Of a DNA stretch of 52,491 nucleotides, positions 8,833 through 15,075 are shown in pieces; the stretch's first letter is position 1; each line of letters starts with the position of its first letter. The DNA is from a virus (lineage: Duplodnaviria > Caudoviricetes): positions 1-52,491 of IMG/VR virus record IMGVR_UViG_3300006922_000034; one strand, written 5' to 3'. The translations under genes were made by a program, and so were the position numbers. Under the pieces are notes generated by a model. The model did no database searches. It had not been told where the DNA came from and was given only the letters and a program-made list of their open reading frames with translations.

Positions 8833-9708
8833 ATGGCAAAACAAACAAGTAATCCGTTAGCAGGACACTTTAGAACGCCAAAATTATATACAGGATTACC
8901 AAGTGGGGGAGATTATTATTCAAATGATGTTTTAGATACATCTATTGAAGAACATGCAGTCCTTCCAATGACGGCAAAAGACGAATTGATTATGAAAAAT
9001 CCAGACGCACTTTTAAACGGTGATGCTGTGATACAAGTAATAGAAAGTTGTGTACCAAGCATTAAAAATGCAATGGCACTTTTTAGCAACGATGTAGATG
9101 CTTTATTGGTTGCAATACAAGGCGCAACCTTTGGAGATGATATTGAGGTACAAGCAGTATGTGATAAATGTGAAGAACAAATTACAAGTGTATTGAGTGT
9201 TGAAGGTGTTTTAACCACAATGACTAATTTAAAAGAATCTTATCAGTTCACAACTGCATCAGGATTATTAATTAGTGTACAACCTTTTAGTTATAAATCT
9301 GCTGTAAAGGCAGGTATTGCTAATTTTAGAACTACTAGAAGTTTACAATCAATTGCAGATATCCCAGACGAAGTAGATAGAATTCGTGCTTTTAACGAAA
9401 ACTTTGTAGAATTAGCAAGTTTAAACTTTGAGCTTATGGTTGATAGTGTTAAAGATGTAACTATTAAAGAAGGCGAAGATACTATTGTTGTTTCAGATAA
9501 AAAACAAATTAAAGAATTTTTAGAAAACTGTGATAGAGCAGTTGGAAGTGAAATACAAACATTTATAGAAGAAATTTCTAATGTTGGTATTAATAAAAAA
9601 ATGGAAGTAGGATGTGAGAAAGAAGAATGTGGAGGCTCACCAGAAGAACCATACATATTTGAATCTGAGGTGAACTTTAATCCTGTAAATTTTTTCACCG
9701 CTTCCTAG
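8833..9708 (+). CDS. gp26: Baseplate hub/tail assembly chaperone, gp26-like
   Basis: LPSGG, PMTAKDEL, D.DALLVAI...TFG, two Cys pairs (CDKC, CEKEEC) and a C-terminal NFF, as in gp26-family proteins. Confidence 0.75.
   Translation: MAKQTSNPLAGHFRTPKLYTGLPSGGDYYSNDVLDTSIEEHAVLPMTAKDELIMKNPDALLNGDAVIQVIESCVPSIKNAMALFSNDVDALLVAIQGATFGDDIEVQAVCDKCEEQITSVLSVEGVLTTMTNLKESYQFTTASGLLISVQPFSYKSAVKAGIANFRTTRSLQSIADIPDEVDRIRAFNENFVELASLNFELMVDSVKDVTIKEGEDTIVVSDKKQIKEFLENCDRAVGSEIQTFIEEISNVGINKKMEVGCEKEECGGSPEEPYIFESEVNFNPVNFFTAS
9687..9696 (+). promoter_or_regulatory. Putative -1 ribosomal frameshift site (A AAT TTT / T TTT TTC)
   Basis: Two overlapping X XXY YYZ heptamers in frame with gp26. The -1 frame is open from 9681 through the downstream ORF. 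Confidence 0.7.
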
Positions 9709-9929
9709 CTCAATCAGAGCCAGAAGAGATTGTGGCATATCTTGGGAGGCTGAAAAAAGAAACAGACGCCCTAGAAAAAAATATTTGTGAACTTGTGATT
9801 TATAGCGGAGGCTCAATTGCATGGAACGATGTTTGGTATATGTCAACTCCTCAAAGAACTTTATTAGGTAAAACACTAGAAAATATGCTTAAACAAAAAG
9901 CAGGCAAAACTGTAACAGATGAACTCTAA
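9696..9929 (+). CDS. gp51-like baseplate/tail assembly catalyst, probably made as a -1 frameshift extension of gp26
   Basis: Short helical ORF with a W..M...R motif. Its GTG start at 9732 has only a weak RBS, and the frame is open back to the slippery site. Confidence 0.65.
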   Translation, partial: HRFLAQSEPEEIVAYLGRLKKETDALEKNICELVIYSGGSIAWNDVWYMSTPQRTLLGKTLENMLKQKAGKTVTDEL

Positions 9930-10348
9930 TGTCTTGGTTATATAATAACAAAGAAATTACCGAACTTCCAGAAGAATGCGAAGCCTTCGTATATATTATC
10001 ACTAACCTAACAAACAACAGAAAGTATGTTGGTAAAAAGTTAGCAAAATTTAAAACTACTAAACCGCCATTAAAAGGCAGAAAAAATAAACGTCGTGGTA
10101 CGAAAGAAAGCGACTGGAAAACATATTGGGGTAGTAACGATCATTTAAAAGCAGATGTGATAGAACTAGGAGAAGACTCTTTTACAAGAGAAATATTGCA
10201 CTTTTGTCCTAGTAGAGGTGTTGCAAGTTACTTAGAAGCACAAGAACAGTTTGAAAGAAAGGTATTACTTACTGACGATTATTATAACGGAATAATCAAT
10301 GTAAGGGTAGGCGGCTCAGAAATCCTTAAAGAAGCATTGACAAGTTGA
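9929..10348 (+). CDS. Minimal GIY-YIG (Seg-like) endonuclease, catalytic domain only
   Basis: FVYIITN..NNRKYVGKK, Y.GS, F.REIL, YLE, YYNG motifs. It has a basic insertion and no C-terminal DNA-binding module. Confidence 0.85.
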   Translation: MSWLYNNKEITELPEECEAFVYIITNLTNNRKYVGKKLAKFKTTKPPLKGRKNKRRGTKESDWKTYWGSNDHLKADVIELGEDSFTREILHFCPSRGVASYLEAQEQFERKVLLTDDYYNGIINVRVGGSEILKEALTS

Positions 10349-10359
10349 TAACTATTTGC

Positions 10360-10819
10360 TGATAAGAACACATCATGGCACATCACAGACGTTAAGTCAA
10401 AACAAGGCACACATAGGACTATACACCGGCTCTACCGAGGCATATTTAATCGGACTCTTTGACAATCCAGTAATCCTGGTGCGGGACTCTAGAGATGTAT
10501 AGCGGCAAAGATACAAACACACGTTAAACAGTATTAAAAGGATGTAGGCAATGAGAAAAAGCAACCTACAAGTTATATAACTAAACTTACTAAGGTTATA
10601 TGGCTTCCGTGAGATTCGTGACGGTAGTGTATGGGGACAAAAGGCTCACCGGTTCCTAATAGCACCCGAAGTTAAGAAGGCGAAGACATCACATGATGAC
10701 ACCTTTCTCACCTTTTATAGGTGAGTTATGGCTTCAACATACATGATAACGGTCTTTTAAAAAACTTTCAAACAAATGAAAGAGTTGAGTGAAACGAAAC
10801 GATTGAATGTAGTTTGAAA
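10360..10819 (+). ncRNA. Putative large structured non-coding RNA of unknown class
   Basis: No ORF of 60 aa or more, GC-richer than other intergenic DNA, about 10 helices including long-range ones with G-U pairs on the + strand, and a near-consensus late promoter (TGATAACTA, 10346-10354) just upstream. Confidence 0.6.
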
Positions 10820-10834
10820 AGGTCCGTAGGACCT
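10817..10834 (-). terminator. Terminator of the leftward operon (cUACGg tetraloop hairpin plus U tract)
   Basis: Minus strand GGTCC-TAC-GGACC-TTTT directly at the stop codon of ORF 10833-11171. Confidence 0.65.
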
Positions 10835-11171
10835 AAACTGTTTGTAAATGTTCTTTAATATGTTTACAGTTACCTCTAAAAGTATAACCAGGACATGTGC
10901 AAGTATTCTTTTTAGTGTCCAGCAAATAAACATTACCTTTAGAACCTTGTATTTTTACTATATGACTTTCCAGTTCTTCTTCCCTTTCGCCAATTTTCAC
11001 AAACTTACGTCTTGCTTTACTGAATTGTGTGCTAGGAACTTTAAGAACTTGGAGTTCAGAATCTTGATCAACTTGATAACCTACAAGTCTACCTGAGGAA
11101 CTTACATGATAAACTCCATTGTTTACCTTGTACTTTCCCCAGTCAGTTACTTCTTGTAATATTTCAATCAT
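10833..11171 (-). CDS. SWIM zinc-finger protein
   Basis: GSKGNVY...CTCPGYTFRGNCKH matches the CxC-xn-CxH SWIM motif. Confidence 0.8.
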   Translation of the reverse strand: MIEILQEVTDWGKYKVNNGVYHVSSSGRLVGYQVDQDSELQVLKVPSTQFSKARRKFVKIGEREEELESHIVKIQGSKGNVYLLDTKKNTCTCPGYTFRGNCKHIKEHLQTV

Positions 11172-14059: not shown

Positions 14060-15075
14060 TATTCGGTGTCTATGCTGTTATAAATATCAACCAACGTTTC
14101 TTTGTTGACTGTATTTGATTCTATTGTGTCTAATTGTGCAAGTACAATTTGATTTACACTTTCAAACAGTACTTCTCCTCCTTCAAACTCTTCCTCTTCT
14201 TTTACAGGAATAAGTTGAAGTTCTCTTACATTATATTGTTCTGCAAACTTCTCTCTAATAAAGTTTGCTTCTTCGTAACTGATGCTAATATCAAGTTTTA
14301 CTCTAGCATAAGTGTATTCATCCAATAAGTTTTGGTGATCATCTAATAATTCTTTTAAAGAAAATACTCTGTATTTTGGACATTCTGTCCAATTAACATA
14401 TTGTGGTTCTTCTCCCCATGTTAAGAACATAGCACCACGTTCGTCATCTCTAACATCTGCGTAATTATGTGGAAATGCATTTCCTATATAATGTATATTA
14501 TTTTTATATTGTCGTTTATGGAAATGTCCACTAAACACATATTCAGGCCCACTTAGCATTTTATCATTAATGCCACCGTGATCAGGCATTTCTACCATTG
14601 CATTCATTTTAAAGTAGGGTAATTCAAAATGCCCAAACATATATTTGCATTGCATTTTAGAAACTGTTTTATAATCATCTCCAACAAGCCATGGAATAAT
14701 TGCAACATCGTCTTGTTCAAACATGTCGTCAACCATTACAAAATTTGATAGGTCACGAGCATATTCTATGCTATTCATATCTCGTTTATCTTTGTAATAA
14801 AGATCGTGATTACCAGTTATAAAGTAAACAGTTTCAAATGCATCATTAAGTTTTTTAAGATCTTTAATAGATGCATTCATTGTTGCAACACTTATACTTG
14901 CTCTATGGTGACTCCAGTCACCTAGAAATATACAAGTTTCTGCATTTCTGGCTTTTGCTTCTGCTATAAACCAGTCCACATACCTGTGGCAGTCTTCTAA
15001 ATGTAAGCGACTGTTTTGCTTTAATCCGTAATGTATATCCGTAAAGCAGGCCGCTGTCTTAAACAGTTGGGCCAT
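14059..15075 (-). CDS. gp47: Recombination endonuclease nuclease subunit, gp47/SbcD/Mre11-like
   Basis: Metallophosphoesterase motifs TDIHYG, FLGD, GNHD, GHFE, SGHFH. Confidence 0.93.
   Translation of the reverse strand: MAQLFKTAACFTDIHYGLKQNSRLHLEDCHRYVDWFIAEAKARNAETCIFLGDWSHHRASISVATMNASIKDLKKLNDAFETVYFITGNHDLYYKDKRDMNSIEYARDLSNFVMVDDMFEQDDVAIIPWLVGDDYKTVSKMQCKYMFGHFELPYFKMNAMVEMPDHGGINDKMLSGPEYVFSGHFHKRQYKNNIHYIGNAFPHNYADVRDDERGAMFLTWGEEPQYVNWTECPKYRVFSLKELLDDHQNLLDEYTYARVKLDISISYEEANFIREKFAEQYNVRELQLIPVKEEEEFEGGEVLFESVNQIVLAQLDTIESNTVNKETLVDIYNSIDTE

Follow-up and report, generated by a model that had tools for sequence, protein, structure and literature searches.

Introduction

A viral contig of 52,491 bp in the IMG/VR database (IMGVR_UViG_3300006922_000034; "the window" in what follows, at its full length), estimated to hold 14% of its phage genome, carries a gene for a stand-alone GIY-YIG nuclease of 139 amino acids (aa), which is followed by 484 nucleotides (nt; 10349-10832) with no open reading frame (ORF) of 60 aa or more. 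What does this gap encode, and what has it to do with the nuclease? The gap is the largest of its kind in the window, as the initial annotation had stated, the second being 247 nt, and it is bounded by the nuclease gene on one side and by a convergent gene for a SWIM zinc-finger protein (10833-11171, - strand) on the other. Our analysis, based on comparison with related viral sequences, indicates that the gap is a + strand gene for a non-coding RNA of ~470 nt, with a conserved core of ~425-430 nt (10412-10834). The nuclease gene and this RNA form a two-gene module that is present in every sampled member of a clade of uncultured marine T4-like phages. The best reading of these data, which we put forward tentatively, is that the RNA would be the partner of the nuclease in one nuclease-RNA particle, in which a short word that the RNA carries twice would be read two-fold.

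Results

Evidence for a structured RNA in the gap

When the window's gap was folded as a single sequence, the minimum free energy z-scores were -0.33 for the + strand and +0.20 for the - strand, i.e., there was no stability excess over shuffled sequences. The helices described here were accepted because of covariation among relatives, the single-sequence fold being uninformative. The description of the gap as rich in helices thus holds by covariation and not by the fold of the single sequence. Relatives were obtained by comparing the gap by blastn with 112 loci that had been fetched via two flanking proteins; it was present in 54 of these, at 70-98% identity, and at the nuclease-anchored loci among the blastn matches the gap sequence lies directly behind the nuclease gene.

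RNAalifold, applied to 32 sequences, gave 70 base pairs, 39 of them with compensatory change, and two pseudoknots emerged from mutual information over 99 distinct sequences and a subsequent helix scan. In its full form, with both pseudoknots, the model comprises 17 helices with 91 base pairs, 53 of which show compensatory change. Its cells are paired in 95.6% of cases, as compared with 83.7% when shuffled (none of 500 shuffles reached the observed value) and with 32-43% in slid controls. Three helices are weak, namely P0 (80.8% of cells paired), P4 (75.6%) and the inner helix of P10 (59.4%). By covariation, the predicted RNA fold thus comprises at least 14 well-supported helices and two pseudoknots. 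The central domain (10506-10682; 38 sequences) has 45 pairs, of which 31 are changed on both sides, and 98.9% of its cells are paired, versus 87.2% in shuffles (none of the 500 was as high) and 34-46% in slid controls; both pseudoknots, PK1 and PK2, are paired in 100% of cells. A structured non-coding RNA had been proposed from the window alone, and covariation downstream of nuclease homologues had been suggested as its test; both proposals are borne out, the latter by the 53 compensatory pairs.

The strand of the RNA can be read from its pairs. As G.U pairs are frequent (13.9% of paired cells) and as pairing drops from 98.9% to 85.2% when the - strand is read, the RNA is in sense with the nuclease gene. 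The RNA core shows an identity to the window of 0.69, as compared with 0.54 at the third codon positions of the nuclease in the same loci (n=81), and the RNA is under purifying selection of its own. At one site, after 10613, relatives carry optional hairpin inserts capped by GNRA loops.

The features of the RNA are listed below, where percentages refer to cells paired.

10363-10418, + strand: variable 5' leader with two GGCAC motifs (10377-10381 and 10406-10410) and hairpin P0; motif and hairpin numbers differ among relatives
10388-10390 with 10396-10398, + strand: hairpin P0, weak (80.8%)
10419-10502, + strand: 5' domain, closed by P1 (10419-25 with 10496-502; 94.8%, compensatory changes)
10435-38 with 10450-53, + strand: P2 (98.4%, compensatory changes)
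10467-70 with 10476-79, plus the pair 10463 with 10483, + strand: P3 (95.0%, compensatory changes)
10455-58 with 10491-94, + strand: P4 (75.6%; local alignment uncertain)
10510-10676, + strand: central domain, the most conserved part; covariance model R1 gives the window 192.8 bits
10510-14 with 10531-35, + strand: P5, with central-domain covariation
10543-48 with 10565-70, + strand: P6, enclosing a near-invariant loop, 10549-10564 (GCnnUGAGAAAAAGCA)
10571-74 with 10602-05 and 10576-82 with 10594-600, + strand: P7, with central-domain covariation
10622-24 with 10666-68, 10627-30 with 10662-65 and 10633-38 with 10652-57, + strand: P8, with central-domain covariation
10609-13 with 10645-49, + strand: pseudoknot PK1 (100%)
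10586-90 with 10671 and 10673-76, + strand: pseudoknot PK2 (100%)
10680-10700, + strand: direct repeat DR-a, unpaired, with the word ACAUGAU at 10691-10697
10707-12 with 10720-25 (10707-10725), + strand: hairpin P9 between the repeats (98.4%, compensatory changes)
10731-10750, + strand: direct repeat DR-b, unpaired, with the word ACAUGAU at 10741-10747, 50 nt past the DR-a copy
10766-73 with 10812-19, + strand: long-range helix P10 (97.6%, 7 of 8 pairs compensatory)
10784-86 with 10798-800, + strand: weak inner helix (59.4%) in the purine-rich region inside P10
10820-25 with 10829-34, + strand: terminal hairpin P11 (99.0%, compensatory change in 4 of 6 pairs), with which the conserved block ends on its 3' side

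The similarity of the relatives stops at P11. At the 5' side, two relatives (L052 and L069) have up to three tandem units of 22-27 nt in the leader, within the first 100 nt after the nuclease stop codon; a small hairpin of the form GAC-5 nt-GUC lies in every unit, and GGCAC-like motifs separate one unit from the next. In the window, the leader contains a single hairpin of this type together with two GGCAC motifs.

Twin words on either side of hairpin P9

Of all mutual-information signals in the RNA, those of the variable positions of the repeats DR-a and DR-b are the strongest, and the letters there are identical and not complementary. For example, positions 10693 and 10743 read AA in 58, GG in 25 and UU in 16 of the 99 distinct sequences. 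Indeed, a 7-nt word is identical between the two repeats in 99 of 99 distinct RNAs, in 8 variants, and on a quick maximum-likelihood tree, from which the repeat columns were excluded, it changed at least 18 times, in both copies each time. According to the model, this twin word, 7-10 nt long, lies unpaired on either side of P9. Since fixed differences between the repeats are kept (one additional base in the first, and GAUGAC in DR-a versus GAUAAC in DR-b), they are not fresh duplications. The repeat-hairpin-repeat layout also recurs in diverged RNA types behind nuclease homologues. The constraint on the word points to one external reader that would meet both copies.

Possible partners of the word were sought in each locus. 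Exact and near copies of the word and their reverse complements gave only noise, with no complement inside the RNA, and a reverse-complement 7-mer within 600 nt on either side was found only where DR-a is itself palindromic. When G.U pairs were allowed, the word could pair only with the invariant GUUAUG at 10725-10730, and there was no covariation. The 13-mer of the word-partner search occurs 8 times in the window versus 6.2 expected. Pairing of the DR-a word with the DR-b word was rejected as an explanation, as it would not force identity. In the window, a mini-ORF of 17 codons runs from DR-a to DR-b, but the alignments show that relatives do not keep it. The first repeat matches the box-C consensus RUGAUGA; no box D was seen, and we give this match no weight. 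The initial annotation had proposed that relatives be examined for a hypervariable, guide-like segment. No hypervariable guide of fixed length, as in OMEGA systems, was found, and the variable stretches (the 5' leader and the linkers after each repeat) also differ in length. Only the 7-10-nt twin word, which is the sole unpaired segment that co-varies, is guide-like.

The GIY-YIG nuclease

9929-10348, + strand: gene for the stand-alone GIY-YIG nuclease, 139 aa, intact

The nuclease gene terminates with TGA, and the next codon is TAA. The protein matches Pfam PF19835 (SegE_GIY-YIG) with an E-value of 2.6e-33 and 115.3 bits (cut-off 25), residues 3-123 covering positions 1-123 of the 123-position profile, and PHROG 447 with an E-value of 9.8e-36, the label of which, "NAD synthetase", looks like a misnomer. 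Only GIY-YIG families match it, and none of the RuvC/HNH type of IscB and TnpB. In 44 aligned family members, Y22, Y33, G35, K37, R87, E103 and N120 do not vary; of these, the Tyr residues of the GIY and YIG motifs, the Arg, the Glu and the Asn are presumably catalytic. The AlphaFold2 model is confident (predicted local distance difference test, pLDDT, of 96.0; predicted template modelling score of 0.87), and in it the basic stretch KFKTTKPPLKGRKNKRRGTK forms a confident beta-hairpin. The closest look-alike in the PDB is the catalytic domain of I-TevI (1mk0; probability 0.97, E 0.095, template modelling score 0.66 by target length); the structure search with the model yielded nothing at an E-value of 0.001 or better, and a sequence search across all solved structures yielded no match. 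The protein ends at residue 139, ~15 residues past the catalytic domain, and has no C-terminal DNA-binding module. The initial annotation, which saw here a bare GIY-YIG fold of 139 aa with a basic loop and with the C-terminal DNA-binding module missing, was accurate on both counts.

The family consists of stand-alone proteins of 135-150 aa. It comprises at least 7,978 clusters at 90% identity (among the matches listed, all 138-143 aa), 2,102 representatives at 50% identity match the nuclease, and homologues are found in 764 deposited phage records, mostly of cyanophages. In all 81 loci that were read, the nuclease ORF is full length (138-145 aa).

Structure prediction of the complex yields a symmetric homodimer of the nuclease, with a score of 0.76, the best of 3 controls reaching 0.00. 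The predicted interface is symmetric and involves residues 101-138, the runs agree in 100% of contacts, and the pLDDT of the partner is at least 91. The mark used for this score was reached by 20 of 30 proteins solved as same-chain pairs and by 1 of 23 solved as single chains, counts that should be considered only approximate here, as our own alignment was used and as the pass may be due in part to a resemblance to GIY-YIG oligomers of solved structure.

Linkage of the RNA to the nuclease gene

A scan of IMG/VR with a pattern made from the RNA only revealed at least 119 contigs. Of the 119 RNA-anchored contigs among the matches listed, 113 carry the nuclease gene upstream and in the same direction, and 6 are too short to tell, with less than 460 nt of upstream sequence; in 99 of the 113 the nuclease gene ends ~205 nt before the pattern, i.e., the RNA is directly next. 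A second set of loci was anchored on a neighbouring baseplate-hub-like gene (at least 50% aa identity). The RNA was present in 21 of these 21 loci and the nuclease gene in 20, the remaining one being cut by the contig end. All 21 lie at the junction of the baseplate and gp46 blocks, 15 in the orientation of the window and 6 inverted; since the pair is intact in both orientations, it inverts as one unit. There is no empty site and no sporadic presence among these loci. Neighbours vary and the pair stays: upstream, one finds a 65-aa ORF (up65), gp46 or an ORF of 263 aa (orf263), and downstream the SWIM gene, orf263 or up65. Amino acid identities in the baseplate-anchored loci are 77-91% for the nuclease, 70-95% for gp46 and 50-73% for the baseplate gene; two near-copies of the window, L234 and L235 (99%, 98% and 96-97%), were excluded from these ranges. 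As the module is universal in the clade and its nuclease is conserved about like gp46, it looks like a vertically inherited core feature that inverts in one piece and not like a sporadic selfish insert. The pairing of nuclease and RNA, initially proposed from one locus, thus reflects a linkage beyond chance or plain synteny (113 of 119 among the matches listed; 21 of 21 loci of the clade).

Some relatives carry other ORFs between the nuclease gene and the RNA. These include a second, longer GIY-YIG-like ORF of 226 aa (L189 and L209), two + strand ORFs of 343 and 142 aa (L121 and L195) and one or two opposite-strand ORFs of 165-173 aa (L122, L146, L178 and L188).

Outside IMG/VR, blastn of the RNA found no match in 50,697 deposited phage records. 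The RNA pattern hit one contig in 185,579 species genomes of cellular organisms; this hit lies inside bacterial genes, is not recognised by R1 and is a chance match. In the Pseudomonas jumbo phage PA5oct, the locus from gp46 to the baseplate hub gave a best R1 score of 10 bits (E 0.12), and no twin word was found in its gene-poor stretch of 1.4 kb. This stretch (9018-10530 of PA5oct, the matching junction) has only four tiny annotated ORFs (117-153 nt) in ~1.4 kb and many hairpins.

The 5' border motif

10347-10362, + strand: conserved motif GATAACTATTTGCTGA, the 5' border of the RNA unit, kept in relatives

The motif GATAACTATTTGCTGA may be a late-type promoter or the 5' end of the RNA. Its first part, GATAACTA at 10347-10354, overlaps the TGA stop codon of the nuclease gene, as had been noted before together with its single mismatch to a promoter-like motif; it has 1 mismatch to the core ATAAATA and 2 to the full T4 late-promoter octamer TATAAATA. 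In the loci shown with an opposite-strand gene inserted (L122, L146, L178, L182, L185, L188 and L224), the motif GATAACTAnTTGCTGA adjoins the RNA and not the nuclease stop codon. The window contains 6 occurrences of ATAACTAT, versus a chance expectation of 6.4. For TATAAATA, there are only 2 (at 14079 and 43466) versus 10.6 expected from shuffles, a strong depletion, such as one would expect of a functional motif that is avoided elsewhere. No sigma-70-type promoter and no intrinsic terminator was scored on the + strand, and P11 was not scored as a terminator.

Genomic setting

The source phage of the window is a T4-like marine myophage. Its gp46/SbcC-like protein shares at most 51% identity with deposited phages, the nearest being PA5oct. 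Further features of the window are as follows.

1-128, - strand: two tandem glutamine riboswitch aptamers (Rfam RF01739; 50.1 and 44.8 bits versus a gathering score of 35), the second truncated at the window end
9732-9929, + strand: 65-aa ORF (up65), the terminal TAATG of which overlaps the nuclease start codon
10833-11171, - strand: SWIM zinc-finger protein, 112 aa (PF04434, E 8.1e-5), the stop codon of which overlaps the terminal hairpin P11

Relatives of the SWIM protein (56-99% identity) are found in 29 IMG/VR loci; the nuclease-RNA unit lies at a distance of 3 kb or less in only some of these. If the upstream place of the 65-aa ORF is taken by gp46 or orf263, the stop-start abutment or overlap with the nuclease gene persists. 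As this overlap is kept in differing upstream contexts, nuclease expression may follow the neighbouring genes, being driven with late genes in some phages and with early or middle genes in others.

Comparison with known RNA families and nuclease systems

In Rfam 15, used in gathering mode on the whole window, only the two glutamine riboswitches (1-128) matched. In E-value mode, the region 10250-10950 gave three chance-level matches of 16-18 bits, versus gathering scores of 40-70. None of the models for RNase P, tmRNA, group I and group II introns, HEARO, GOLLD, ROOL, OLE and raiA matched the RNA, and ARAGORN found neither a tRNA nor a tmRNA. The Polynucleobacter-1 motif (RF01718, gathering score 37 bits) was found neither in the window at E<=10, nor in 10 variant-RNA loci at E<=1, nor in 5 further viral records; Weinberg et al. 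2010 (PMC2864571) place this motif in Burkholderiales and in fresh water and estuary samples. The gap RNA is thus an uncatalogued family, with no Rfam match and not found in deposited phage genomes; the Rfam comparison that had been proposed with the initial annotation shows that it fits no known family. In full-text searches of the literature, no account of a GIY-YIG-linked RNA turned up. A survey of 10,006 candidate structured RNAs from IMG/VR (PMC10690425), the main text of which, as far as available, has no mention of GIY-YIG, may list pieces of the gap RNA unnamed.

The arrangement resembles that of the OMEGA systems (HEARO/omega-RNA with IscB, reRNA with TnpB), in which a small nuclease gene likewise has a large structured RNA next to it, encoded on the same strand and linked to it in a conserved manner. 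HEARO too was first noticed as an RNA associated with an endonuclease gene (PMC13565253). However, the nuclease here is of the GIY-YIG and not of the RuvC/HNH type, no transposon or TnpA context was seen at the locus, and in place of a long hypervariable guide at the RNA end there is a word of 7-10 nt, twice, inside the RNA. With SegA-G of T-even phages and I-TevI the nuclease has the catalytic domain in common, and its gene is likewise placed between conserved phage genes. Seg-type enzymes normally have a C-terminal DNA-binding part; the nuclease here, unlike them and I-TevI, has neither linker nor DNA-binding domain, is universal in its clade, is a predicted homodimer and has its own structured RNA behind it. 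T4 endonuclease II (DenA) is a small, oligomeric, stand-alone GIY-YIG enzyme, and it is like the nuclease here in its size, in having no separate DNA-binding domain and in being oligomeric. The T4 gene denA is placed just after the ribonucleotide reductase genes, as is the nuclease homologue of phage Melnitz. A difference is that the sequence search of solved structures gave the nuclease no match, and we know of no RNA partner of DenA. Finally, ROOL and GOLLD, carried by phages or prophages, are large and heavily structured orphan RNAs, as is the gap RNA. They are described as RNA-only assemblies (PMC12286853). Unlike them, the gap RNA is smaller, is strictly tied to one nuclease gene, has co-changing twin words, occurs in marine T4-like phages and is not matched by their covariance models.

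Discussion

How, then, might the RNA work? In the reading that we tentatively prefer, the RNA would act in trans as the partner of the nuclease. The folded RNA would serve as a scaffold that holds the nuclease dimer, and the twin words would be read two-fold. Base pairing with a nucleic acid bearing the complementary word would be the simplest way, and this reading of the word would either direct cleavage or restrain it. The prediction of a symmetric dimer fits an RNA with two copies of one word.

Several observations weigh against a nuclease-RNA particle and need to be considered. The basic hairpin of the nuclease is common to the whole family: the PPLKGK-KRK stretch occurs across the 44 aligned members and is not limited to RNA-linked nucleases, and it is therefore not an adaptation to the gap RNA. 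A search for a target complementary to the word was negative for the RNA itself, for the 600 nt flanking it on each side and, as regards enrichment, for the window, where the word itself is neither avoided nor favoured and has no complement near it. The expression data consist of small shares of a 3-kb stretch in 8 runs, and the four runs examined proved to be assembled contigs only. Contig pieces from the RNA libraries X2 and X4, as well as from X1 (probably DNA), lie on 10307-10838, where the conserved RNA attracts contigs of relatives; being assembled contigs, those from RNA libraries are therefore no proof of transcription, of its ends or of its level. Moreover, 14 of the 113 contigs with the nuclease gene upstream, among the matches listed, have 0.55-1.5 kb of other genes between nuclease and RNA, and as some of these genes are on the opposite strand, co-transcription of the pair is not required.

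The distribution of the nuclease also speaks against the particle, as its family is far wider than the RNA (the 764 deposited phage records and 2,102 clusters at 50% identity given above). In 37 of the best 80 nuclease loci, some of which are cut by contig ends, nhmmer gave no match to the RNA. Covariance model R1 recovers diverged RNAs in six loci (L061, L078, L080, L092, L106 and L107), only L061 being among the 37, and exact repeats show the repeat-hairpin-repeat layout in L081, L086-L088, L097 and L098; other loci without an RNA match have ORFs or different conserved DNA behind the nuclease gene. The nuclease of phage Melnitz shares 77% aa identity with that of the window, yet the whole Melnitz genome has no R1 match; this gene follows the ribonucleotide reductase genes and is separated from the next gene by 148 nt. 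Nor did R1 find anything credible in the whole genomes of S-SRM01 and phiN3 (best E among the three phages 0.58).

Many of these points would be accounted for if the RNA were an independent, trans-acting phage RNA and the nuclease merely its constant neighbour, an explanation that we consider nearly as likely as the nuclease-RNA particle. Such an RNA could be a decoy or sponge that offers its word twice to a host or phage RNA or protein, or an ornate self-assembling RNA, and the two genes would simply share a convergent junction. Close nuclease homologues without the gap RNA, genes inserted between the pair (in part on the opposite strand), a conserved motif that moves with the RNA like its own promoter, a basic hairpin that is not restricted to RNA-linked members and the lack of any target of the kind that a nuclease guide would have are all in line with this. 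Nonetheless, the linkage survives inversion and change of neighbours, and no RNA was seen away from a nuclease gene (113 of 119 among the matches listed, the rest being uninformative, and 21 of 21); the order is always nuclease and then RNA, on the same strand; and a predicted two-fold nuclease beside an RNA with a two-fold word would have to be a coincidence.

Other explanations are far less probable. It is rather improbable that the block is a cis-acting DNA element, an alternative given in the initial annotation, i.e., a replication origin with a structured primer transcript, for which T4 R-loop origins and ColE1 RNA II are precedents, or a packaging or processing site that is nicked by the nuclease, with the repeats as DNA sites. 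The position of the block at the junction of the convergent gp46 recombination and baseplate gene blocks would suit such an element, as would the spacing of the repeats, ~five helical turns apart. However, the constraint is RNA-like (many G.U pairs that are impossible on the opposite strand, two pseudoknots and optional GNRA-capped hairpins), the fold is more ornate than primer transcripts are known to need, and DNA sites for one protein need no 18 joint changes. We give just as little credit to a selfish homing-endonuclease cassette, in which the enzyme would cut cassette-free genomes, the RNA would be cargo or a regulator in the 3' untranslated region, and conservation would reflect recent spread. 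The catalytic domain is indeed of the Seg/I-TevI type, the unit lies between conserved genes in either orientation, its start codon overlaps the upstream stop codon in several contexts, and one relative has the second GIY-YIG-like ORF (226 aa) inside the unit. Against this, the unit is not sporadic, being found in 21 of 21 clade members with no empty site; the nuclease is no more conserved than gp46 (77-91% versus 70-95% aa identity), so that there is no need to invoke recent spread; a domain with which the enzyme could bind a long DNA target is missing; and the RNA is under purifying selection of its own and can be parted from the nuclease messenger by opposite-strand genes. Lastly, the absence of the C-terminal DNA-binding part that is usual in Seg-type enzymes might suggest that the gap is a decayed nuclease C-terminus or another dead gene. 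Decayed coding sequence was ruled out, as no consistent ORF is common to 81 relatives; indels in the gap are not multiples of three and occur as helix or hairpin inserts, the 53 compensatory pairs refute it, and the whole nuclease family is 135-150 aa long. The probability of this explanation is negligible.

Within the nuclease-RNA particle, a stricter version is an RNA-programmed nuclease, which we consider unlikely. Here, a GIY-YIG homodimer without a DNA-binding domain would be aimed by an RNA with two identical guide words, one per subunit, and the words would pair, in the DNA of the host or of a rival phage, with both strands of a palindrome or with a pair of repeated half-sites. The 18 or more concerted word changes would then be a record of retargeting. 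Of the RNA-guided nuclease suggested in the initial annotation, the structured RNA and the tight linkage stand, while a long guide and a target were not found, and the idea survives only in the form of the short twin words.

Whichever reading applies, the RNA belongs to a rare kind. To our knowledge, few large RNAs have two pseudoknots and at least a dozen covarying helices, and those that are known are ribozymes or ribonucleoprotein or guide scaffolds; we know of no RNA partner for the GIY-YIG nuclease fold. With at least 119 IMG/VR contigs, the gap RNA is abundant in viromes of the ocean, and the joint changes of its word, at least 18 and with no visible complement, pose a sharply defined puzzle, namely, who reads the word. 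If the RNA programs the nuclease, this would be a new and very compact targeting principle (139 aa and ~430 nt) and the first RNA-guided GIY-YIG enzyme, with a bivalent short-guide logic unlike that of CRISPR or OMEGA. If it does not, the RNA would still represent a new class of ornate phage RNA, held at a fixed genome junction in a major marine group of giant T4-like phages.

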